Part shown: positions 8,791-60,641 of the stretch, piece after piece
Numbering within the stretch: the first letter of the stretch is position 1
Layout: the number at the start of each line of letters is the position of its first letter
Assembly (NCBI GenBank): GCA_964545575.1
Contig: CAZJFL010000006.1
Span: 25,721 to 89,720, forward strand
Length of the DNA stretch: 64,000 bases
Direction of reading: 5' to 3'
Origin: an uncultured Planctomycetales bacterium
GTDB taxonomy: Bacteria; Omnitrophota; Gorgyraeia; Gygaellales; Profunditerraquicolaceae
Program-made: the position numbers and the translations under genes
Notes under the pieces: generated by a model
Database searches by the model: none
The model's input: the letters and a program-made list of their open reading frames with translations, nothing else
What the model was told of the DNA's origin: nothing

Positions 8791-10806
8791 ATGGAGCTGA
8801 TTAACAAAGACTTAATTTTAAAAGAAATGCCGTTGTTCGCCGGCCTCACTGCCGAAGAGCGCCGGATCATCAAAGGCAAATGCTCCTTAAGAGACTATAA
8901 AAAAGGCGAAGTCATTTACAAGGAAGGCTCTCCTGCGGATGCGTTTTATTGCGTGGTCCTCGGCCGAGTGGTCATTTATGCCCGGGACAGAGACGGACAG
9001 GAAAAAATCCTGGAATACCTGCACCGCGGAAAATACTTCGGCATTATTTCTCTCCTTACCGGAGAGACGCATTCCGTGACTGCCGAGACTATAAACGACT
9101 GCCTGCTTCTGGTGATTGAGAAAAAGGACTTCGATTATGTCTTAAACAAGGCCCCGCGCTTAGCCATTGACTTAAGCCAGACCCTTTCCCGCAGGCTCAA
9201 ACGTAAAGATATCCACCAGAAGACAATCTTTGAAAGTACGGTGATTTCAGTATTCAGCTCTTATTCCCAAGCGGGTAAAACCGTTTACGCGATGAATCTC
9301 GCCCTGAGCCTGCGCAAAGAGACGCAGAAGAGCCTGGTGATACTGGGTATCCTGCCGCAGGATAAAATCCATAGCCTGCCTAAAAGGCTGGAGAGCGCAG
9401 GAGATTACCGGGTCTTTGATTTATCTTCTTCGGCCGCCAGCACCTCAAGGATTAAAGATTTTATTTTAAAAAACAGGTTTGCGGTAGATTTAATCTGCTT
9501 AAGCTATAACCCCGAAGATTATTCCTGCGTCAGGAAGCTGGTTGAGATTTTAAGCCTCCTGGTGAATGATTACCATTACCTGATTTTAGACCTGCCTTCC
9601 TCGATGGACAGGCCGGTTTTTAGCATCTTGAACCAATCCGATTTGATCTATATGCTGACCGGCCCGGAGCCGGTAGATTTGAAGCGTACCCAGCACCTGA
9701 TAGCAAAACTTAAGAAAGAGTTTCATTTTCAGGAAAGCAAGATCAGGGTGGTGATCAACGAATATAAACTTTCCAAGCTTAGCCACGAGGAGCTGATCGG
9801 GCTATTGAAGCAAAATATTTCGGCTACTTTGCCGAGAATAGAATTTGGCGCCGGGGACAGGTTGATTTTGGATAATCCTGATTGCGAATACTCCAAAGCA
9901 GTCAGGCGCATCGCGCGCCAGATCGGCGATTGCCAGGTAGGCCTGGTGCTCGGCGTGGGGGTAGCTTACGGTTTCTGCCATATCGGGGTATTAAAGGTAA
10001 TCGAGGAAGAAAAAATCCCCGTTGACGTCATTTGCGGTTCCAGTATCGGAGCCCTGATTGCCAGCCTCTGGGCAACCGGAAAATCCGCCCCGGAGATCCT
10101 TGAAATCACTAAAGAGTTTAAGGAGGCAAAATCCATGTGGGGGATGGTGGACTTGACTTTCCCGCTCCTGGGCTTTATCAAAGGCAACAAGCTCCATAAT
10201 TTCCTGAAAAAATATTTGGGCAATAAGACCTTCTATGAGGTTAAGCTTCCCTTAAAGATAATTGCCAGCGACGTAAAAAGAAAAGAGCCGCGCGTCCTGG
10301 ACAAAGGCTTAATCGCGGATGCGATCATGGCCAGCTGTGCCATGCCCGGGGTGTTTGCGCCTTTTAAGTTCAGGGAAGAGATACTTTTTGACGGCGGCAT
10401 CATCAACCCTTTGCCGACTGAACCTTTATTTAAGATGGGGGTTAAAAAGATTATCGCCGTCAATGTCACGCCTTCCCGTCAGGATATCATGCGCCAGTAT
10501 GATTTGCTGAAAGAAAAAATTACGGTTACGATCCCCGAGAGCATCAAGAAGAAAAAGTGGTTTAGCTTACGGCAGTACCTGAAGGATATATTTAAGAATA
10601 ATATCCTGGATATCATTTTTAGTAGCGTCGAAATATTGCAGTCGGAAGTAGCCCAGAAAGAAGCGCAACTGGCAGATGTAGTCCTGCATCCGGACACCGC
10701 CGGTTTATTTTGGCTGGATTTACACAAGGCAGAGGAGTTTGCCAAAAGGGGAGAAACAGAGGCGCGCCGGAACCTGGATAAAATCAAGCAGTTGGTTAAT
10801 GATTAA
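8791..10806 (+). CDS. Three-domain protein: cNMP-binding (CAP_ED) + degenerate ParA/MinD-like domain + patatin-like phospholipase (NTE-like)
   Basis: The N-terminus has the cNMP-binding beta-roll (…FGIISLLTGETHSVTAETI…). The middle has a deviant P-loop (SSYSQAGKT). The C-terminal half has the patatin motifs GxGxxG (GVGVAYGF) and GxSxG (GSSIG), with a DGG. The start overlaps the GH1 stop (TAAATG). Confidence 0.8.
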   Translation: MELINKDLILKEMPLFAGLTAEERRIIKGKCSLRDYKKGEVIYKEGSPADAFYCVVLGRVVIYARDRDGQEKILEYLHRGKYFGIISLLTGETHSVTAETINDCLLLVIEKKDFDYVLNKAPRLAIDLSQTLSRRLKRKDIHQKTIFESTVISVFSSYSQAGKTVYAMNLALSLRKETQKSLVILGILPQDKIHSLPKRLESAGDYRVFDLSSSAASTSRIKDFILKNRFAVDLICLSYNPEDYSCVRKLVEILSLLVNDYHYLILDLPSSMDRPVFSILNQSDLIYMLTGPEPVDLKRTQHLIAKLKKEFHFQESKIRVVINEYKLSKLSHEELIGLLKQNISATLPRIEFGAGDRLILDNPDCEYSKAVRRIARQIGDCQVGLVLGVGVAYGFCHIGVLKVIEEEKIPVDVICGSSIGALIASLWATGKSAPEILEITKEFKEAKSMWGMVDLTFPLLGFIKGNKLHNFLKKYLGNKTFYEVKLPLKIIASDVKRKEPRVLDKGLIADAIMASCAMPGVFAPFKFREEILFDGGIINPLPTEPLFKMGVKKIIAVNVTPSRQDIMRQYDLLKEKITVTIPESIKKKKWFSLRQYLKDIFKNNILDIIFSSVEILQSEVAQKEAQLADVVLHPDTAGLFWLDLHKAEEFAKRGETEARRNLDKIKQLVND

Positions 10807-11018
10807 GTGAGGGCATAAGTTATGCCTGCCTGACCGGTGAGGCAGGGAGGTAGCTATTAGTTGGCTAACCGTCATAACTTATGTGCCCGAACTTACACCG
10901 CACCTTTTAAATATTCAAAAATACTTTAATAAAAAGGTGCGGTGTTAATTCGCGCAAATAACTTACGTCGCTCTTTCAGAGCTTCCGTAAGTTATGCGCT
11001 CATTAAAAGGAGAGGAAG
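10807..11018 (+). repeat. Family-1 structured intergenic element, copy A (three stem-loops)
   Basis: Starts GTGAGGGCATAAGTTATGCC right after the stop codon. SL1 is GGGCATAAGTTATG…CATAACTTATGTGCCC. SL2 is CACCGCACCTTTTA…TAAAAGGTGCGGTG. SL3 is GCGCAAATAACTTACG…CGTAAGTTATGCGC. It ends GCTCATTAAAAGGAG + ATG. Homologous modules lie at 13575, 29472, 30881 and 38930. Confidence 0.55.
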
Positions 11019-11411
11019 ATGAAAACAAAGATTTTAATTCTGGCATCGCTCATTTTGGTCACCGGTTGCGCATCCTTAAAAGAAGGCATCAAAGGGTTAG
11101 CCGGGGTGTCGACTAAGGCGCTGGAAGAGAACAGAAAGACCGCCATAGTCAAAGTGTTTGATATGGATTATTTTAACTGCTACATTAGGGCGTTGGATAG
11201 CTTGAAGAAAATGGGCGCTTATATTTACGCGCAGGATATAAAGAAGTATATGATCGCTATCTATGTATCTGAAAGCGATACTACTCCGGTAGGCGTATTT
11301 TTTAAAGAAGTAATCCGGAACGCTACGCAAGTGGAAGTTTCCTCTCCTAGCTCTTATGCCAAAGAGGTTATTGCCGCAAAATTATTTTCTGCTTTAGAAG
11401 GCAAAAATTAA
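11019..11411 (+). CDS. Lipoprotein of unknown function
   Basis: Signal peptide with lipobox LVTG-C. Strong RBS AAAGGAGAGG. No recognisable catalytic motif. Confidence 0.5.
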   Translation: MKTKILILASLILVTGCASLKEGIKGLAGVSTKALEENRKTAIVKVFDMDYFNCYIRALDSLKKMGAYIYAQDIKKYMIAIYVSESDTTPVGVFFKEVIRNATQVEVSSPSSYAKEVIAAKLFSALEGKN

Positions 11412-13501: not shown

Positions 13502-13573
13502 GCCGAGGTAGCTCAGTGGTAGAGCGCGGCCCTGAAAAGGCCGGCGTGGGGGGTCCGATTCCCTCCCTCGGCA
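13502..13573 (+). tRNA. tRNA-Phe (anticodon GAA)
   Basis: Hand-folded cloverleaf. Acceptor GCCGAGG/CCTCGGC, D-arm GCTC-AGTGGTA-GAGC, anticodon stem CGGCC/GGCCG with loop CTGAAAA, T-arm GGGGG-TCCGATT-CCCTC. No encoded CCA. Confidence 0.85.
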
Positions 13574-13574
13574 T

Positions 13575-13625
13575 AAATGAGCAGACGGCTTACGGAGCGA
13601 AAGCGACGTAAGCCGTAGCTGTTTT
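13575..13625 (-). repeat. Family-1 element fragment (copy D, inverted module)
   Basis: AATGAGCAGACGGCTTACGGAGCgaaagCGACGTAAGCCG is the reverse-orientation counterpart of the 3' module of copies B and C (…CCGTAAATTGTCTGCTCATT). Confidence 0.4.
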
Positions 13626-13667
13626 ATATACTGGCAACCAGCGTCTGCGAATTTATCCCGAGCCTAT

Positions 13668-13696
13668 GCCAAAAATTTTATTCTAAAATTTTTGGC
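13668..13696. repeat. Perfect palindrome GCCAAAAATTTTA-ttc-TAAAATTTTTGGC
   Basis: 13-nt arms with a 3-nt spacer. Confidence 0.6.
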
Positions 13697-29187: not shown

Positions 29188-29215
29188 TTGACAAGCTTTG
29201 ATTTTGTGTTAAAAT
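29188..29215 (+). promoter_or_regulatory. Sigma70 promoter TTGACA-16-TGtTAAAAT for the rib operon
   Basis: Consensus -35 with an extended -10. TSS about 10 nt before the riboswitch. Confidence 0.5.
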
Positions 29216-29262
29216 AGAAAAAGATTAATCTTCAGGGCAAGGTGAAATTCCCGACCGGCGGT

Positions 29263-29348
29263 AGCGCAGAAACGCACACCAAACCATCAATTTGGTTTGG
29301 GTGTTAGCGCAGAAGCGCACACCAATTTATCCTATAAAATTGGGTGTT
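29263..29348 (+). repeat. Tandem duplicated roughly 43-nt insertion in the riboswitch P3 loop
   Basis: Unit 1 is AGCGCAGAAACGCACACCAAAccatcaaTTTGGTTTGGGTGTT. Unit 2 is AGCGCAGAAGCGCACACCAATTTatcctatAAAATTGGGTGTT. The P3 hairpin is usually short. The CACCMAA…TTGGGTGTTA motif resembles the family-1 SL2 module. Confidence 0.6.
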
Positions 29349-29437
29349 AAAGTCCGCGAGCCAAAAAGGCATGAACTGGTGCGAGTCCAGTACCGATGGT
29401 ATAGTCCAGAGGGGAGAAGATTGAAATTACCTTTATA

Positions 29438-29466
29438 CCCGAAGATTCTTTTCGGGTTTTTTGTTT
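29438..29466 (+). terminator. Riboswitch intrinsic terminator (CCCGAAgattcTTTTCGGG + T6)
   Basis: Hairpin plus T-run immediately after the aptamer. Confidence 0.7.
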
Positions 29467-29471
29467 TTAAT

Positions 29472-29671
29472 GAGCAGAAGACTTACGGAGTTCCGAAAGA
29501 GCGACGTAAGTCTTAGTGATAGCGTTATACGAAATTATTCACGTCTGCGAATTAACGCCGCACCTTTTATTTTTTTAAATGCCTTAAAAAGGTGCGGCGT
29601 AAGTTCGCACAAATAAGTTATGTCGATTAGCTCTAGTTAAATAACGGTCTCCATAACTTATGTGCTCACTT
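29472..29671 (+). repeat. Family-1 structured intergenic element, copy B
   Basis: Modules: GAGCAGAAGACTTACGGAG…CGACGTAAGTC; GCGAATTAACGCCGCACCTTTT…AAAAAGGTGCGGCG; ACAAATAAGTTATGTCG…CATAACTTATGTGCTCAC. It overlaps the first ATG of ribBA. Confidence 0.5.
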
Positions 29672-30880
29672 ATGTTCAATTCTATCCAGGAAATAATTCA
29701 GGATTTAAAGAGCGGTTCCCAGGTCATTGTGGTGGATGACGAGAGCCGGGAGAACGAAGGCGACCTGATCATGGCGGCTTCTTTTGTCCGGCCGCAGGAT
29801 ATAAACTTTATGGCCAAGGAGGGGCGGGGGCTCATCTGCGTGCCCATGGAAGAGGAAAGGTTAAGCTATTTACGCCTTGAGCCGATGCTTAAAGACGATG
29901 TTTCTCTGAGCCGGAAAGATCCTTTTTCTACCGCCTGGATGATTTCTGTGGACGCCGCGCGGGGGATAACTACCGGTATCTCTGCGGGCGACCGCAGCCG
30001 CACCATAGAGGCCTTGGCTAATCTTAAGACGACGCCCGAAGAATTGATACGTCCCGGTCATATCTTTCCTTTAAAGGCGCGTAAAGGCGGAGTATTGGTC
30101 AGGGCCGGGCACACTGAAGCAGCGATAGACCTGATGCGCCTCTGTGGGCTATATCCGGTAGCGGTAATCTGTGAGATTATGAACGAAGACGGCACCATGG
30201 CCAGGCTGCCGGAGTTGCTTGAGTTTTCCCGTAAACACAAGCTTAAGATCTGCTCTATTGCCGATTTAATCGAATACCGCAGGCGTTCTGAAAAACTAAT
30301 AGAGCGGGTTTCTGAAACTATACTTCCGACTGAATATGGCACCTACCGGCTGATCTTATACCGGGATTTAATCAGCAGGCAGATGCATATTGCGCTGACG
30401 ATGGGGAAGCTTAACAGCGGCGCTACCCTGGTGCGCGTGCATTCCGAATGCCTGACCGGCGATACGCTGGGGTCTTTACGCTGCGATTGCGGGAAGCAGC
30501 TGGAAAAAGCGATGCAGATTATCGGCCGGGAAAAAAAGGGCGTGCTCCTTTATATGCAGCAGGAGGGTCGCGGCATCGGTTTGGCGGATAAAATCCGCGC
30601 TTATAGCCTGCAGGATAAAGGGATGGATACGGTGGAGGCCAATGAAGCCTTAGGTCATAAGCCGGACCTGCGCGATTACGGTATAGGCGCTCAGATTTTA
30701 GCGGACCTCGGGCTAGAAAATATCCGGCTCTTAACCAATAATCCGCGTAAAATCGTGGGCCTGGAAGGCTATGGTTTAGCTGTCACTGAACGCCTGCCCC
30801 TGGAGGTCAAACCTAATCCTGCAAATTACCGGTATCTAAAGACCAAAAAGGAAAAATTAGGGCACGATTTAAAAATATAA
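29660..30880 (+). CDS. ribBA: Bifunctional 3,4-dihydroxy-2-butanone-4-phosphate synthase / GTP cyclohydrolase II
   Basis: N-terminal RENEGDL…, C-terminal HSECLTGD…CDCG. The second ATG at 29672 (MFNSIQ…) is an alternative start. Confidence 0.92.
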   Translation: MCSLMFNSIQEIIQDLKSGSQVIVVDDESRENEGDLIMAASFVRPQDINFMAKEGRGLICVPMEEERLSYLRLEPMLKDDVSLSRKDPFSTAWMISVDAARGITTGISAGDRSRTIEALANLKTTPEELIRPGHIFPLKARKGGVLVRAGHTEAAIDLMRLCGLYPVAVICEIMNEDGTMARLPELLEFSRKHKLKICSIADLIEYRRRSEKLIERVSETILPTEYGTYRLILYRDLISRQMHIALTMGKLNSGATLVRVHSECLTGDTLGSLRCDCGKQLEKAMQIIGREKKGVLLYMQQEGRGIGLADKIRAYSLQDKGMDTVEANEALGHKPDLRDYGIGAQILADLGLENIRLLTNNPRKIVGLEGYGLAVTERLPLEVKPNPANYRYLKTKKEKLGHDLKI

Positions 30881-31036
30881 GTGAGGGCATAAGTTTGCAC
30901 CCAAAGATACTTTTTAATAGAGATTTGGGTGTTAATTCGCAGACGCTAATAGATAAGTAAAATGATGGATGCTACAATTTACGTCGCTCCTGGAGGAGCT
31001 CCGTAAATTGTCTGCTCATTAAAAGGAGGGAGAAAG
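30881..31036 (+). repeat. Family-1 structured intergenic element, copy C
   Basis: Begins GTGAGGGCATAAGTT right after the ribBA stop. Contains CACCCAAA…TTTGGGTGTTAATTCGC and …TTACGTCGCTC…GAGCTCCGTAAATTGTCTGCTCATTAAAAGGAGGG before the ribH ATG. Confidence 0.55.
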
Positions 31037-31504
31037 ATGACAAAGGTGATCGAAGGCAATTTAATTGCCAAGGGAAAGAAGTTTGCTATCATCGCTTCGC
31101 GCTTCAACGATTTTATTACCAAGGAGCTGATTGCCGGTTGCCTGGATACGCTGATCAGGCATGGCGCCGACGATAAAGATTTAGTGTTGGCCTGGGTGCC
31201 GGGTGCGTTTGAGATCTCAGTCGTCGCTCAGCGCTTGGCTAAGTCTAAAGCATATGACGCTCTTATTTGTCTGGGTACGGTTATCCGCGGCTCCACCCCG
31301 CATTTTGATTATATCGCTTCAGAAGTAGCCAAGGGAGTAGCCAAGGTCTCTTTGGATAGCGCAACGCCGGTAATTTTCGGCGTGATTACTGCCGATACTA
31401 TCGAGCAGGCTATCGAGCGCGCCGGGACAAAAGACGGCAATAAAGGAAGAGATGCGGCATTAAACGCCATTGAAATGGCAAGCTTAGTGGATAATTTAAA
31501 ATAA
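31037..31504 (+). CDS. ribH: 6,7-dimethyl-8-ribityllumazine synthase
   Basis: 155 aa. …[10 protein letters not shown]…GAFE… is typical of RibH. Confidence 0.9.
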
Positions 31505-31511
31505 ATCCCCG

Positions 31512-31928
31512 ATGAGAAAACGCACCCAGGCCAGGGAGTTTGCCCTGCAGCTCCTTTACCAGATCGATATCACCGGCGATGACTGCGATCAGGCGCTTTT
31601 AGGTTTCTGGCAGTCAAATGCCGGGGATAATATAGAGGAGGAAATTAAGGCTTTTACCTCTGAGCTGGTAAAGGGTGTTGTGGCCTCCCTCACCGCTATC
31701 GACGCTAAAATATCCGCCTATGCCACCAATTGGCAACTTGGGCGCATGGCCTTTGTAGACAGGAATATACTGCGGATGAGTTGCTATGAGCTTTTATTCC
31801 GCGCTGACGTGCCGCCTAAAGTATCGATCAACGAAGCGGTGGAACTGGCTAAGAAATATTCTACCCGGGAAGCGGCAAAGTTCGTCAACGGGATATTGGA
31901 TAAAATAAAGATTGAGAAGGAGAAATGA
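31512..31928 (+). CDS. nusB: Transcription antitermination factor NusB
   Basis: 138 aa all-helical protein with AREFALQLLYQ N-terminus. Canonical ribH-nusB linkage. Confidence 0.85.
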   Translation: MRKRTQAREFALQLLYQIDITGDDCDQALLGFWQSNAGDNIEEEIKAFTSELVKGVVASLTAIDAKISAYATNWQLGRMAFVDRNILRMSCYELLFRADVPPKVSINEAVELAKKYSTREAAKFVNGILDKIKIEKEK

Positions 31929-32746
31929 AGTTTGCCGACCTGCACCTGCACACCATGTTTTCCGACGGGACTTACAAACCGGAGGAGCTTCCGGATAAGG
32001 CAGCTAAAAGCGGCTTATCCTGTATAGCTATAGTTGACCATGACACCGTGGCCGGATTACCGCGGGCCTTAGAGGCTGCCAAGCTTAGTGATATAGAGGT
32101 TTTACCGGGGATAGAGCTGAGCGCTGAATATGACGGCTTAGAAATCCATATCCTCGGCTATCTGATTGATCATAAAAATAAAGACCTGCTTAAGAAACTG
32201 GATTTCTTAAAAAATAACCGCATTGAGCGCGTCTATAAGATGGTGGAGAAATTAAAAGGTTTAGGAGTAGCCTTAAAAGCAGAGGATGTTTTTGCCCTGT
32301 CGGAAAACGGCACGGTAGGCAGGCTTCATATCGCCAGGGCGCTTCTTAAGGCAGGACAAGTCAAATCTACGGCGGAAGCATTCCATAAATACATCGGCGA
32401 TAGATGCCCGGCTTATTTTTGCGGTTTTAAATTGACGCCGCGGGAGGCGATAGAGTTAATCCGCAAGGCGGGCGGAGTGCCGGTTTTAGCCCATCCTTAT
32501 ACTTTAGGAAAAGATGAGCTGATAGCCCAGTTCGTAAGAGACGGGCTGATGGGTTTAGAGGTTTATTATCCGGAGCATACGCAATCGATGGTTAATTTTT
32601 ACCTTAAATTATCCCAGGAATACCGGCTGCTGGTAACCGGCGGCTCTGACTGCCACGGTGAGGCAAAACCGGAGGTAAAAATCGGCTCAATAAAAATACC
32701 TTACGCATTGGTCGAGAAAATAAAAGCGGTAAAGAAGAGGTTGTAA
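31925..32746 (+). CDS. PHP-domain metal-dependent phosphoesterase
   Basis: DLHLHTMFSDG…IVDHD PHP motifs. Embedded in the rib operon. Confidence 0.7.
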   Translation: MKFADLHLHTMFSDGTYKPEELPDKAAKSGLSCIAIVDHDTVAGLPRALEAAKLSDIEVLPGIELSAEYDGLEIHILGYLIDHKNKDLLKKLDFLKNNRIERVYKMVEKLKGLGVALKAEDVFALSENGTVGRLHIARALLKAGQVKSTAEAFHKYIGDRCPAYFCGFKLTPREAIELIRKAGGVPVLAHPYTLGKDELIAQFVRDGLMGLEVYYPEHTQSMVNFYLKLSQEYRLLVTGGSDCHGEAKPEVKIGSIKIPYALVEKIKAVKKRL

Positions 32747-33837
32747 TGCCAAAAAATCACGCCTATTTTATGGGGTTAGCCATGAAGTTAGCCTTAAAAG
32801 GAAAAGGTAAGACTTCGCCTAATCCGATGGTCGGGGCGCTGGTAGTAAAGAAGGGCAGGATCATCGGTAGGGGTTATCATGAGAAAGCAGGTTCTGCTCA
32901 TGCGGAAGCGATAGCTTTAGATGAAGCAGGAAGTAACGCTAAAGGAGCAACGCTCTACGTTACCTTAGAGCCCTGCGCGCACTTCGGCAGGACGCCTCCC
33001 TGCGTCGACAGAATAATTAAAAGCGGGGTCAAAGAGGTAATCGTAGGGATGGTGGACCCGAATCCCCTGAATAACGGCAGAGGCATTAACATACTGAGGC
33101 AGCATAAGCTAAAAGTTGAGGCGGGCATTTTAGAGGATGAGCTAAAGAAACTAAATGAGGTATTTATAAAATATATTACGCGCAAAATTCCCTTTGTGAC
33201 CGTAAAAGTAGGCCAATCCCTGGACGGTAAAATTGCCACCAAAAGCGGAGACTCCAAGTGGATAACTTCTGATAAGTCGCGCGCTTATGTCCATCGCATG
33301 CGCCAGGGTTACGATGCGGTAATGGTAGGGGTAAACACGGTGCTCAGGGATAACCCGACCCTTGACCCCTGGTTTTCTAAAAAGAAACTGACTAAGATTG
33401 TGGTGGATAGCCAGCTCAGCATTCACGAGGAGGCCAATATCTTCTCTTCCGGGGCGCCGGTAATCGTCGTAACTTTATCTATTGCCGCGGGGCAGGAAAC
33501 GGAAAATAGGAAGATATTAGCCCAAAAGGCCAGGATTTTAGAGGCCAAAGAAAAAGAAGGCCAGATTAACCTTAAAGACATGATGAAAAAACTGGCCGGT
33601 CTAGAGATAACTAATATTTTAGTAGAAGGCGGCGGCACGCTGATCGGGGCGTTATTCGATGAAGGATTAGTAGATAAGGTCTGCATTTTTATTAGCCCCA
33701 AGATCATCGGGGGCAAAGATGCAATCAGCTCGGTGGAGGGTAAGGGTATTACGCGCATAGATAAGGCAATCAGATTAAGAGGCGTCAAGCTAAAGCGCAT
33801 CGGCGAAGATTTTTTAGTAGAGGGTTACATCGCTTAA
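32746..33837 (+). CDS. ribD: Bifunctional riboflavin biosynthesis deaminase/reductase RibD
   Basis: CMP/dCMP deaminase zinc motif (HAE…PCAHFGRTPPC) and a C-terminal RibG reductase domain. Confidence 0.9.
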   Translation: MPKNHAYFMGLAMKLALKGKGKTSPNPMVGALVVKKGRIIGRGYHEKAGSAHAEAIALDEAGSNAKGATLYVTLEPCAHFGRTPPCVDRIIKSGVKEVIVGMVDPNPLNNGRGINILRQHKLKVEAGILEDELKKLNEVFIKYITRKIPFVTVKVGQSLDGKIATKSGDSKWITSDKSRAYVHRMRQGYDAVMVGVNTVLRDNPTLDPWFSKKKLTKIVVDSQLSIHEEANIFSSGAPVIVVTLSIAAGQETENRKILAQKARILEAKEKEGQINLKDMMKKLAGLEITNILVEGGGTLIGALFDEGLVDKVCIFISPKIIGGKDAISSVEGKGITRIDKAIRLRGVKLKRIGEDFLVEGYIA

Positions 33838-33838
33838 T

Positions 33839-34417
33839 ATGTTCACTGGCATAATTGAGGAACTGGGGCAGATAAAACGTATCTCTAAAATAGGCAATAT
33901 CGCTTTACTTGCCGTTAAAACGCATAAAATCTTAGAAGATGCAAAAATAGGCGATAGCATATCCGTTAACGGCGCCTGCCTGACTATAACAAGGATAGAA
34001 AACGGCATTTTATTTTTTGAAGTCATGCCTGAAACGCTAAAAATCACAAATCTGGGTATTTTGAGAATTTCGGATAAAGTCAACCTTGAGCGTAGCCTAA
34101 AGATCGGGGATAGGTTGTCCGGGCACTTTGTCACCGGTCATGTTGATTGCCTGGGTCTAATCCGCAAAAAAAAATATATCAAGGGCAATCTTTGTTTTGA
34201 GATCGCCATCCCTGGAGAGTTTAGCAGATACTGTTTACCTAAAGGCTCCGTGGCCGTGGACGGCATCAGCCTTACTTTAGCCGCAAATTTAGCGGGCACC
34301 TTTAGCGTTTATATTATTCCGCATACCTTTAAAAATACCACTCTCGGCTTTAAAGGGCCTTCGGATAAGGTGAATGTAGAGTTTGATATTCTCGCCAAAA
34401 AGAACCTGCACCAATAA
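33839..34417 (+). CDS. ribE: Riboflavin synthase alpha subunit
   Basis: MFTGIIEELG N-terminus. Two lumazine-binding repeats. Confidence 0.85.
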   Translation: MFTGIIEELGQIKRISKIGNIALLAVKTHKILEDAKIGDSISVNGACLTITRIENGILFFEVMPETLKITNLGILRISDKVNLERSLKIGDRLSGHFVTGHVDCLGLIRKKKYIKGNLCFEIAIPGEFSRYCLPKGSVAVDGISLTLAANLAGTFSVYIIPHTFKNTTLGFKGPSDKVNVEFDILAKKNLHQ

Positions 34418-38310: not shown

Positions 38311-38924
38311 TATTAGAAACAGTCCGCGTAGGCCCCTTTGATGTAAATTGTTATATCCTGGCAGCAAGTCCAGGCAGTAAGGCCATCATCATCGACCCGG
38401 GGGCAGAGGATAAAAAGATAGAGCGGGTTTTAAAGAGGCATAATTTAAAACCGGTTTTGGTCATTAACACCCACGGCCATTTCGACCATATCGGATGCGA
38501 TGACAAATTCGGCGTCCCCGTCTATATACACAGCGATGATTTAATGCTTTTAAAAGACCCCCAGCTTAATCTTTCTAATTTTATGGCTTCGGCGTATAAG
38601 GTGAAATCAGAAATAAAGACCCTAAAAGATAAAGAAAAGATACTGTTGGAAGATATAGAATTAGAGGTGATACATACCCCCGGTCATACCCCGGGCGGGA
38701 TCTGCCTTTTGCTGAAAAAACCGGTGAATAATGTTCTCTTCAGCGGTGATACTTTATTTTTTCAGGGCGTCGGAAGGACGGATTTTCCTCAGGCGAGCCC
38801 GGATCAGCTGCTTGAGTCTATAAAAGAAAAATTATTGGTTTTGCCGGATGAGACAGCCGTTTATCCCGGCCACGGGCCGTCTTCTACCATCGGCAGGGAG
38901 AGGAAGTCAATGAGTGCACATTAA
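38307..38924 (+). CDS. MBL-fold metallo-hydrolase (glyoxalase II-like)
   Basis: HGHFDH motif plus downstream His/Asp ligands. 205 aa. Confidence 0.8.
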   Translation: MILETVRVGPFDVNCYILAASPGSKAIIIDPGAEDKKIERVLKRHNLKPVLVINTHGHFDHIGCDDKFGVPVYIHSDDLMLLKDPQLNLSNFMASAYKVKSEIKTLKDKEKILLEDIELEVIHTPGHTPGGICLLLKKPVNNVLFSGDTLFFQGVGRTDFPQASPDQLLESIKEKLLVLPDETAVYPGHGPSSTIGRERKSMSAH

Positions 38925-38929
38925 TCCCG

Positions 38930-39075
38930 CCCCTTTTTAGTATTTAAATGTTTTTAAAATAAAAGGTGCGGGATAAATTCAGCCAACGAACTTATGTTCG
39001 CTTGCCGCAAAAGCGGCACACCGGCTGTTCCAATACAGCCGGGTGTTATGCTCCATAAGTTCGGGCTTCATTTAA
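38930..39075 (+). repeat. Family-1-related intergenic element, copy E
   Basis: CCCCTTTTTAG…TAAAAGGTGCGGG hairpin plus AACTTATGT / CATAAGTTCG modules. Overlaps the ORF-track N-terminal extension of xerC. Confidence 0.4.
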
Positions 39076-39962
39076 TGCGTGAATTGATAGACATATTTTT
39101 AAACTATTTATCCGTGGAGCGGGGATTATCCCGCAATACCATGGTTTCCTATAAGGAAGACCTTAATTATTATCTGGAGTATCTCGCCCGGCGCCATATC
39201 GATGCGATCTCTAAGACTAATAAAAATGACATAGTAAGTTTTATGCTGGAGCAGAAAGATAAAGGGCTAGCCGCCAACTCCGTTGCCAGGCGCCTGGCAG
39301 CAATAAAGGTATTTTACCGCTTTTTGGTCCGGGAGAGGATCTTAAAAGAAGATGCCACCACTTTAATAGATTCCCCTAAATTATGGAAGAAGATTCCCGA
39401 GACGCTTTCGCTGAACGAAGTGGAGACCCTGCTTGCTCAACCGGATATCAGAAATAAACAGGGAATAAGGGATAAGGCGATTTTAGAGACGCTCTACGCT
39501 ACCGGGATGCGCGTTTCTGAGGCGGTAAACTTAAGGACCGATAACGTGAATCTGGACGTCGGGTTCCTGCGCTGTATCGGTAAAGGCAATAAAGAACGGG
39601 TCATACCTTTGGGCAAAAAAGCGATAGCCAGCGTCAGAAGGTACCTCCAAGGCAGCCGGCCGCAGTTATTAAAGAGAAAAGAAAGCGACTTTCTTTTTGT
39701 CAGCCGCTTAGCAAAAAAGCTTTCCCGGCAGTCGATTTGGAAGATGATTAAAAAATATGCCAAACAAGGCCGGATCAGGAAACCTTTAAGGCCGCATATC
39801 TTAAGGCATTCTTTTGCCACCCATCTTCTGGAGAGGGGGGCGGACCTGCGTTCGGTACAGGAAATGCTGGGGCACGCCAATATCTCGACCACCCAGATTT
39901 ATACGCACATAAACAAAGACAGGCTGAAGACTATTCATAAGATGTTCCATCCCAGGCCGTGA
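38994..39962 (+). CDS. xerC: Site-specific tyrosine recombinase, XerC/XerD family
   Basis: …YATGMRVSE…HILRHSFATHLLE…GHANISTTQIYTH catalytic motifs. The true start is probably the ATG at about 39076 (MRELIDIF…), about 295 aa. Confidence 0.85.
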   Translation: MFACRKSGTPAVPIQPGVMLHKFGLHLMRELIDIFLNYLSVERGLSRNTMVSYKEDLNYYLEYLARRHIDAISKTNKNDIVSFMLEQKDKGLAANSVARRLAAIKVFYRFLVRERILKEDATTLIDSPKLWKKIPETLSLNEVETLLAQPDIRNKQGIRDKAILETLYATGMRVSEAVNLRTDNVNLDVGFLRCIGKGNKERVIPLGKKAIASVRRYLQGSRPQLLKRKESDFLFVSRLAKKLSRQSIWKMIKKYAKQGRIRKPLRPHILRHSFATHLLERGADLRSVQEMLGHANISTTQIYTHINKDRLKTIHKMFHPRP

Positions 39963-60560: not shown

Positions 60561-60641
60561 GGGACTGTCCCCGAAGAATGCAAGTTAGGCACCCAAACCT
60601 ATCGGATGGTTTGGTGCCCCGCCTCCTGCGGGGACTGTCCC
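60561..60641. repeat. Paired palindromes GGGACTGTCCCC … GGGGACTGTCCC (family 3), copy 2
   Basis: Same palindrome pair as 6006-6054. The interior holds the hairpin GGCACCcAAACC…GGTTTgGTGCC. It lies inside the ORF-track 5' extension of proC. Confidence 0.55.

Follow-up and report, generated by a model that had tools for sequence, protein, structure and literature searches.

Within the 64,000-nt stretch of Omnitrophota DNA analysed here (the window), an FMN riboswitch precedes a riboflavin operon and carries, in the loop of its P3 stem, two tandem copies of a short repeat that is widely dispersed elsewhere. The explanation that we favour, with a probability of roughly three in four, is that this RNA is a working, FMN-sensing, transcription-terminating riboswitch of an Omnitrophota riboflavin operon, and that the two copies are passengers from a non-autonomous two-hairpin repeat of ~43-45 nt that has spread at the DNA level. 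The insert occupies a tolerant site at the P3a position, and the aptamer core, promoter, terminator and rib operon are all intact; a working riboswitch with passenger repeats is therefore the most likely reading. The riboswitch itself is an ordinary member of the known RF00050 family. What appears to be new is the colonisation of permissive riboswitch loops by a dispersed, structure-conserved repeat whose copy number varies among relatives.

A Complete FMN Riboswitch Precedes the Riboflavin Operon

A search with Rfam cmscan matched RF00050 to positions 29224-29425 of the plus strand at 92.3 bits (gathering score 66.2; E 7e-20). The match covers model positions 1-138/138 and is not truncated, and the same locus was recovered again in an E-value scan. 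In the cmscan alignment, P1-P6 are all paired, the conserved junction residues are aligned, and the sole large insert is in the P3 loop, where 84 inserted nucleotides lie between GGCGGUA and CCGCGA compared to 10 in the consensus. P1 is also kept in the minimum-energy fold of the whole aptamer. Direct reading of the sequence sets the insert at 86 nt (29263-29348), exactly between GGCGGU and AAAGU-CCGC, where insertion-free orthologues read GGCGGU-AAAGY-CCGC. A preliminary description of this locus had called the aptamer core canonical, had placed the extra sequence in the P3 loop, and had named the replacement of essential aptamer helices as the sign of a pseudo-riboswitch. The RF00050 alignment that it proposed as a check bears out the complete core and the P3 loop as the insertion point, and none of the aptamer helices is replaced. 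The expected promoter, terminator and rib operon are present as well:

29188..29215, plus strand: promoter-like, sigma-70-like site TTGACA-16 nt-TAAAAT with a TG extension (consensus scan, 11/12 matches)
29224..29425, plus strand: FMN riboswitch aptamer (RF00050), full length, P1-P6 (cmscan)
29257..29262, plus strand: P3 5′ strand GGCGGU, with the insert beginning right after the U (sequence and insertion-free orthologues)
29349..29357, plus strand: retained loop residues AAAGU and P3 3′ strand CCGC (sequence; identical residues in insertion-free orthologues)
29437..29467, plus strand: intrinsic terminator, a 9-bp hairpin ACCCGAAGA-UUC-UUUUCGGGU followed by a U run (terminator scan)
29672..34417, plus strand: regulated operon ribBA-ribH-nusB-PHP-ribD-ribE (ORF list; Pfam families of identical genes on metagenome contigs; RibBA relatives)
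29672-30880, plus strand: ribBA (ORF list)
31037-31504, plus strand: ribH (ORF list)
31512-31928, plus strand: nusB (ORF list)
31925-32746, plus strand: PHP-domain gene (ORF list)
32746-33837, plus strand: ribD (ORF list)
33839-34417, plus strand: ribE (ORF list)

The promoter-like site ends 9 nt ahead of the aptamer, which places the transcription start just before the aptamer, and a TTGACA...TAnAAT layout is likewise present upstream of orthologous riboswitches. On reading the sequence, we found that the 5′ half of the terminator, CCCGAAGAUU, is complementary to the P1 5′ strand/J1-2 segment AAUCUUCAGGG (29227-29237), and this complementarity also exists in the orthologues. It is plausible that pairing between these two segments forms the antiterminator alternative through which the RNA would switch. 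We infer that FMN binding and switching have been retained by this aptamer.

The Insert Consists of Two Tandem Two-Hairpin Units

The insert is made up of two head-to-tail units of 43 nt (29263-29305 and 29306-29348). Reading, alignment and folding agree with the earlier account of two tandem 43-nt units with two hairpins each, although the units are identical at 32/43 positions, which is 74% rather than the ~80% originally given. Each unit begins with a small hairpin (GCGC-AGAA-GCGC) and continues with a longer one that has an ACACC...G-GGUGU foot, a bulged G and a variable distal stem:

29263..29305, plus strand: repeat unit A (unit model R1, 55.9 bits, in training set; alignment; fold)
29264-29275, plus strand: unit A small hairpin, GCG(C)AGAA(A)CGC
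29276-29304, plus strand: unit A long hairpin, ACACCAAACCA-UCAAUU-UGGUUUG(bulge)GGUGU
29306..29348, plus strand: repeat unit B (unit model R1, 53.0 bits, in training set; alignment)
29307-29318, plus strand: unit B small hairpin, GCGC-AGAA-GCGC
29319-29347, plus strand: unit B long hairpin, ACACCAAUUU-AUCCUAUA-AAAUUG(bulge)GGUGU

The two units differ chiefly in the distal portion of the second hairpin, through compensatory changes (AAACCA/UGGUUU in A compared to AAUUU/AAAUU in B). The patterns ACACCAA-N-TTGGGTGT and AGCGCAGAARCGCACACC occur in the window only within the insert, and in 0/100 shuffles, which speaks against a chance resemblance of the units. The 86-nt insert folds at -32.8 kcal/mol (z = -5.5) with both long hairpins robust, and in the fold the small GCGC hairpins of units A and B are able to pair with each other. 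Tandem Repeats Finder gave no report for the pair because the distal stems are divergent; the repeat itself is present. Five metagenome contigs, each from a different sample (ENA, Logan, JGI), carry riboswitch and insert at 100% identity, and this base-for-base identity rules out an assembly artefact as the source of the insert.

The Unit Is a Member of a Dispersed Repeat Family with Conserved Structure

A covariance model of the unit (R1) was built from 14 units, a training set to which both A and B (E ~1e-11) belonged. Among these 14, 85.5% of cells are paired as opposed to 23-43% in slid controls, with double changes in 10/15 pairs; in 110 distinct units, aligned by fitting to the model, the corresponding values are 92.8% of cells and 14/15 pairs. 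The model finds four copies in the window, which are the two riboswitch units and two dispersed copies:

39003..39046, plus strand: dispersed copy nested in a family-1 hairpin loop (ACTTATG...CATAAGT), in the spacer that separates an MBL-fold hydrolase gene from a XerD-like gene (R1, 46.7 bits; in training set)
60589..60632, minus strand: dispersed copy in an intergenic spacer, with GGGACAGTCCC on both sides (R1, 31 bits, E 1e-5; outside training set)

The spacer that holds the first of these copies (38925-39074) contains 150 nt of nested repeats in the window compared to ~15-25 nt between the same genes in six relatives (among L017-L023), which represent empty sites. Of the long-hairpin variants in the metagenome matches listed, that of the second copy, CACCAAACCATCCGATAGGTTTGGGTG, is the most frequent.

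A metagenome scan with a 20-base pattern for one long-hairpin variant, CACCAAACCAT-N5-10-GTTTGGGTG, returned at least 122 matches on at least 115 contigs in at least 119 distinct flanking contexts. Exact long-hairpin matches of 20-27 nt occur in at least 119 unrelated flanks. On the 115 contigs listed, the covariance model finds 134 units. The units in the riboswitch are copies of a dispersed, structure-conserved repeat family.

Several searches were directed at the carrier, relatives and mode of movement of this family. Only one match to the pattern was found among 2.9 million viral contigs, which disfavours phage carriage. The unit model gave no match in ~0.8 Mb of rib loci from other phyla, and in ~1.3 Mb of ribBA flanks from 80 representative genomes its matches lie only inside FMN riboswitches. 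The riboswitch is thus the sole location of the unit within ~20 kb in several relatives, which could mean selection or a preference for the site. Rfam at permissive E-values returned no known family for the unit or for the family-1 repeats; microRNA-like matches to the long hairpins were spurious. Clustering of 1277 ORFs from the 115 unit-bearing contigs listed (~0.6 Mb of fragmentary sequence) yielded no recurrent neighbour gene except rib-locus neighbours and no transposase adjoining the units.

No consistent terminal inverted repeat or target-site duplication was identified at the unit ends, and no common target sequence could be derived from left flanks as different as GGCGGT, GATGGT, GGGTGTT, CCTCCTT and ATCC. 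Insertion into hairpin loops in general is not enriched when the duplex energy of 20-nt flanks is compared with 3000 random controls at -10 kcal/mol (11% vs 10.6%). At -15 kcal/mol there is a small excess (3.7% vs 1.2%), and individual nested cases are clear. It is the distribution of the unit that suggests its mobility.

Copy Number, Site and Orientation Vary among Orthologous Riboswitches

The closest relatives of the window's RibBA are from Omnitrophota MAGs (78-60% identity; one-genome-per-species contigs), and the loop between GGCGGU and CCGCGA was measured at the riboswitches located for these relatives. Within the clade that shares cinA-riboswitch-ribBA synteny (RibBA 70-79% identical), L3 carries 0, 1, 2 or 3 units, and plain hairpins occur at the site farther afield:

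Canonical L3 of 5-7 nt (AAAGC, AUAGU...): L016, L017, L019, L021, L022, L024, L031-L033
One unit in L3: L015, L025
Two units in L3: L020, L023
Three units in L3: L018
Plain 21-28-nt hairpin in L3, more distant Omnitrophota: L027, L039, L040, L046

The comparison of orthologues that the preliminary description recommended thus reveals 0-3 units, always at the same point of L3 (GGCGGU-insert-AAAGY-CCGC), and cores are equally conserved in orthologues with 1-3 units. The P6 loop L6 (GGU-insert-AAAGUCC), which is the pseudo-symmetric partner of L3, carries either no unit, a forward unit or a reverse unit, and P4 holds a forward unit in L025 and a reverse unit in L192. All ~20 units in L3 are forward. 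Purely neutral, orientation-blind insertion would not give this uniformity, unless it derives from one ancestral event or is demanded by the geometry of the loop. The reverse copies elsewhere in the same aptamer argue for DNA-level insertion over a dedicated RNA domain.

A rough RibBA tree shows a patchy distribution of unit states between close relatives. L023, for example, carries two units in L3, whereas its near neighbours L199, L119 and L021 have none there but carry a unit or another insert in L6. The two units of L023 are near-identical, and in the single L3 unit of L102 the small hairpin matches window unit B and the long hairpin matches window unit A; both cases fit growth by tandem duplication. 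Heterogeneous arrays elsewhere also allow for a second insertion beside the first. Thus, of the earlier proposal that a repeat element inserted into the loop and then duplicated within it, the insertion is upheld by the dispersed copies in the window and in metagenomes, and the second unit may stem from either in-place duplication or a second insertion.

Omnitrophota FMN riboswitches are generally bloated. Besides the two-hairpin unit, these RNAs, which lie ~200-400 nt upstream of ribBA, carry unrelated hairpin insertions of 18-113 nt in L2 (L018, L024, L102), P4, P5 (L027, L030) and L6 (L016, L021, L023, L126), and L025 also belongs to the bloated set.

Dispersed Copies Adjoin Ribosome-Binding Sites or Lie within Structured RNAs

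In 39 of the 122 matches listed, a Shine-Dalgarno sequence and start codon, in reverse complement, adjoin the small hairpin immediately on its left, compared to 2.2% at random positions. A forward Shine-Dalgarno sequence on the right was seen for 2 of the 122 matches listed, which is background (control 2.8%). In mRNA sense, the adjacent copies read UAA - long hairpin - small hairpin - AAGGAGG - N5-9 - AUG, and they are located upstream of unrelated genes that include rpsC, rpsP, pgk, recA, aroC, trpB and others (loci L094-L208, e.g. L121, L148, L164, L205). This fixed orientation against the Shine-Dalgarno sequence indicates that the family is not simply neutral junk everywhere. One idea is that the GGA in the reverse-strand loop (CUAUCGGAUGG) might serve as a CsrA-type site upstream of the Shine-Dalgarno sequence; the window's own units are without GGA.

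About 26 of the 122 matches listed are flanked by GGGACNGTCCC, which is the sole candidate for a terminal repeat or target duplication. The subfamily with these flanks has a small hairpin CCCCGC-AGGAG-GCGGGG, whose loop is Shine-Dalgarno-like, and the near-palindrome GGGAC(A/T)GTCCC on both sides. Its members include the window segment 60540-60653 (copy 60589-60632), L099, L110, L138, L166 and others. The near-palindromes may be element ends, target duplications or separate mini-hairpins.

Other copies lie within arrays or within structured RNAs. Head-to-tail arrays, often with differing distal stems, account for 18 of the matches listed, and ~15 of those listed are inside FMN riboswitches of cinA-riboswitch-ribBA contigs, whose RibBA is 71-79% identical to that of the window; these copies are forward in L3 and of either orientation in L6. 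Two units are carried by an RNase P RNA of bacterial class A (L130:202-626, minus strand; 197.6 bits), one in the P3 loop (53 nt vs 10 in the consensus) and one at the top of P12, in the orientation opposite to that seen in riboswitch L3. Units are also found in the loop of another unit's long hairpin (…ATCC-unit-GTATAGG…), as at L097:6146, L100:4612, L177:1828, L189:1279 and in the L3 of L107, and this nesting suggests repeated insertion into existing copies.

A Second Repeat Family Lies between Terminator and ribBA

A different repeat occupies the remainder of the leader:

29465..29672, minus strand: family-1 composite repeat of ~200 nt, from the terminator to the ribBA start (blastn to other family-1 copies)

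Five copies of this family are present in the 64 kb, in both orientations (10800-11025, 13563-13682, 29465-29672, 30875-31036 and 38910-39080), with lengths of ~150-220 nt and three hairpin modules. The gap between terminator and ribBA is only ~10-30 nt in relatives, compared to ~200 nt in the window. The preliminary description had likened the arms of the unit to the SL2 module of family-1 repeats. This resemblance holds only in part: a CACC...GGTGTTA foot is all that the two share, and the family-1 long hairpin scores only 9 bits (E 3.4) under the unit model, which rules out that the unit is the SL2 hairpin. However, a genuine unit (39003-39046) is nested in a family-1 copy. The unit is better treated as its own family, which can nest in family-1 elements.

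In forward family-1 copies, the first module lies directly against the stop codon that ends the upstream gene, and the last module ends with GCTCATTAAAAGGAG right before the start codon (11020, 31037). No recognisable Shine-Dalgarno sequence accompanies the ribBA start, which alignment with relatives puts at ATG 29672, in the segment 29640-29675 of the window; this start sits within the end of the family-1 repeat (…CATAACTTATGTGCTCACTTATG), and the closest relative, L014, is arranged alike. Short-read metagenome contigs of this population repeatedly end within or beside the family-1 repeat and rib leader: L009 and L013 end at window position ~29586, and contigs L001-L008, which were found through RibH, all end inside ribBA. 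By fragmenting assemblies in this manner, repeats may hide such loci from MAG-based surveys. The window also carries a c-di-GMP-I-GGC riboswitch (RF03167; 6925-7022, plus strand; 73.4 bits vs a gathering score of 59), in which the terminal region of the second hairpin is enlarged and poorly aligned.

Explanations for the Units in the Riboswitch

We propose that the repeat would spread through these genomes at the DNA level and would persist wherever an extra self-folding hairpin is harmless. In the aptamer, these places would be P4, the P3a position of L3, and the mirror-image loop L6, all of which are expected to project away from the FMN pocket. Arrays could then lengthen or shorten by tandem duplication, deletion or further insertion, giving rise to the 0-3 units seen in close relatives. 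A DNA-level origin is favoured because identical long hairpins are found in unrelated contexts, relatives have empty sites, both orientations occur in the same aptamer loops, and copy number varies. The insert is probably neutral or nearly so.

A tentative extension of these observations, which we consider possible but on balance unlikely, is that the two-hairpin unit represents an undescribed class of Omnitrophota element with its own RNA-level function. It might, for example, be an intercistronic or 5′-UTR module (UAA - long hairpin - small hairpin - AAGGAGG - AUG) that is recognised by a cellular factor and whose hairpin-dependent spread prefers the loops of structured RNAs (L3, L6 and P4 of the FMN riboswitch, P3 and P12 of RNase P RNA, and the loops of other units). 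If this is true, a novel type of mobile regulatory cassette, and not ordinary junk repeats, would have left the riboswitch copies as a by-product.

It is also conceivable, but improbable, that the units constitute a selected, lineage-specific riboswitch domain. Such an elaborated P3a could be a platform for protein binding, or could lengthen the transcription time window of a kinetically controlled switch. Units do recur at one site in about half of the related riboswitches, always forward in L3, and their pairing is strongly kept through compensatory change. Moreover, the riboswitch is the only place where the unit is seen in the flanks of relatives, and the long hairpin of unit A is identical in the window, L102 and L120 despite differences in the variable parts of these aptamers. 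However, there are close relatives that have no units, or that have them in L6 or P4 instead and in either orientation. The unit also resides in at least 119 unrelated contexts, including an RNase P RNA and intergenic spacers, its copy number in the riboswitch ranges from 0 to 3, and distal stem sequences vary freely.

Two further proposals are, in our view, each very improbable. One is that the insertion disabled the aptamer, leaving a pseudo-riboswitch and an operon that is constitutive or under another signal; an 86-nt insert together with a ~200-nt family-1 repeat before ribBA does portray a leader under heavy repeat bombardment, but the full-length RF00050 match is well above threshold with helices and junction residues aligned, extra helices are known to be accepted where the insert lies (PMC2258182, PMC3201879), the terminator is intact, as is its complementarity to P1, and orthologues with 1-3 units retain cores that are just as conserved. 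The other is that no mobile repeat inserted here, that a simple P3a hairpin was instead elongated step by step and duplicated on the spot, and that similar hairpins elsewhere are convergent; plain 21-28-nt hairpins do occupy this site in more distant Omnitrophota (L027, L039, L040, L046) and the two units of L023 are clearly an in-place duplication, but with exact 20-27-nt matches in at least 119 unrelated flanks and an independent copy in the window, convergence cannot explain the unit. Duplication in place probably contributed, but it did not give rise to the unit itself.

Relationship to Known Riboswitch Insertions and Repeats

The L3 T-loop interruption site of FMN riboswitches is variable and accepts an optional P3a helix (PMC2258182, PMC3201879). 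Vicens et al. describe P3a/L3a of the Fusobacterium nucleatum RNA as turning solvent-exposed on folding, with L3-L5 and L2-L6 forming peripheral contacts (PMC3201879). The window aptamer has the same six helices as the F. nucleatum impX FMN aptamer with P3a, and its extra sequence is located at the same L3 T-loop interruption point, where it takes the place of P3a while the loop residues on either side are retained. As with known FMN riboswitches (RF00050), it lies upstream of riboflavin synthesis genes with an intrinsic terminator. In contrast to the single P3a helix of F. nucleatum, the window insert is composed of two tandem copies of a genome-wide repeat, with two hairpins each. Its copy number also varies in close relatives, and the unit can reside in L6 or P4 in either orientation.

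Rickettsia palindromic elements (RPEs) are ~100-150 nt in length and are best known inside protein-coding genes. Like the unit, they are small non-autonomous palindromic repeats that survive in functional genes at positions tolerating an extra folded module. One such element is located in the tmRNA gene (PMC1458961). There is no sequence relationship between RPEs and the window unit, which differs further in its size of ~44 nt, its tandem arrays and its strong tendency to adjoin Shine-Dalgarno sequences. STRRs are heptanucleotide tandem repeats, and Vioque reportedly described these short genome-wide repeats within a peripheral helix of cyanobacterial RNase P RNA. The presence of window-type units in P3 and P12 of the RNase P RNA on L130 is a likeness to these repeats, which figure, as part of cyanobacterial RNase P RNA, in a title cited in PMC2858038. 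The unit differs from STRRs in that it is a structured two-hairpin module.

The BOX elements of Streptococcus pneumoniae contain a variable number of tandem ~45-nt boxB modules. Together with the RAYT-associated REP/BIME elements of enterobacteria and pseudomonads, they are the closest behavioural analogues of the unit, with which they share a short imperfect palindrome with a conserved bulge, high copy number, an extragenic but transcribed location, modularity and frequent clustering. An overview of such modular hairpin repeats is available (PMC3184786). The description of a REP as a short imperfect palindrome with many extragenic copies also suits the unit, given its bulged G, its at least 119 contexts and its four window copies. 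However, the unit has no GTAG-type head, and its starts are variable (AGCGC, CCGC, AAGC, CCCCGC...). Its arrays are head-to-tail direct repeats rather than the inverted pairs of REPIN/BIME, and no RAYT-like gene, as associated with REPs, was seen nearby on the 115 contigs listed (~0.6 Mb, fragmentary). REPs favour positions at gene 3′ ends, whereas about one-third of the listed unit copies lie directly against a Shine-Dalgarno sequence, in a single orientation. The unit likewise differs from a MITE, since consistent terminal inverted repeats or target-site duplications are lacking at its ends and only the GGGACNGTCCC flanks are a candidate for them. Our literature search did not turn up any report of such a repeat within the aptamer of a riboswitch, or any account of riboswitches or repeats in Omnitrophota.

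Implications

The orthologous riboswitches amount to a natural experiment in insertion tolerance, in which one module is present in 0-3 copies, in two orientations and in three loops of one aptamer. The distribution of the unit thus marks the points at which the FMN aptamer can be extended with its core preserved, a useful guide for engineering. Whether 40-130 extra nucleotides change the kinetics of this presumably kinetically driven switch is a further question. Structured RNAs that have been enlarged by such units may be split or overlooked by annotation pipelines.

Omnitrophota are known almost exclusively through metagenomes, and these observations expose in their genomes a repeat family that is abundant and conserved in structure. 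It colonises structured RNA genes, disrupts short-read assembly, and takes a fixed position and orientation against ribosome-binding sites. This repeat family, with its bias toward Shine-Dalgarno-adjacent sites, is the more intriguing lead.
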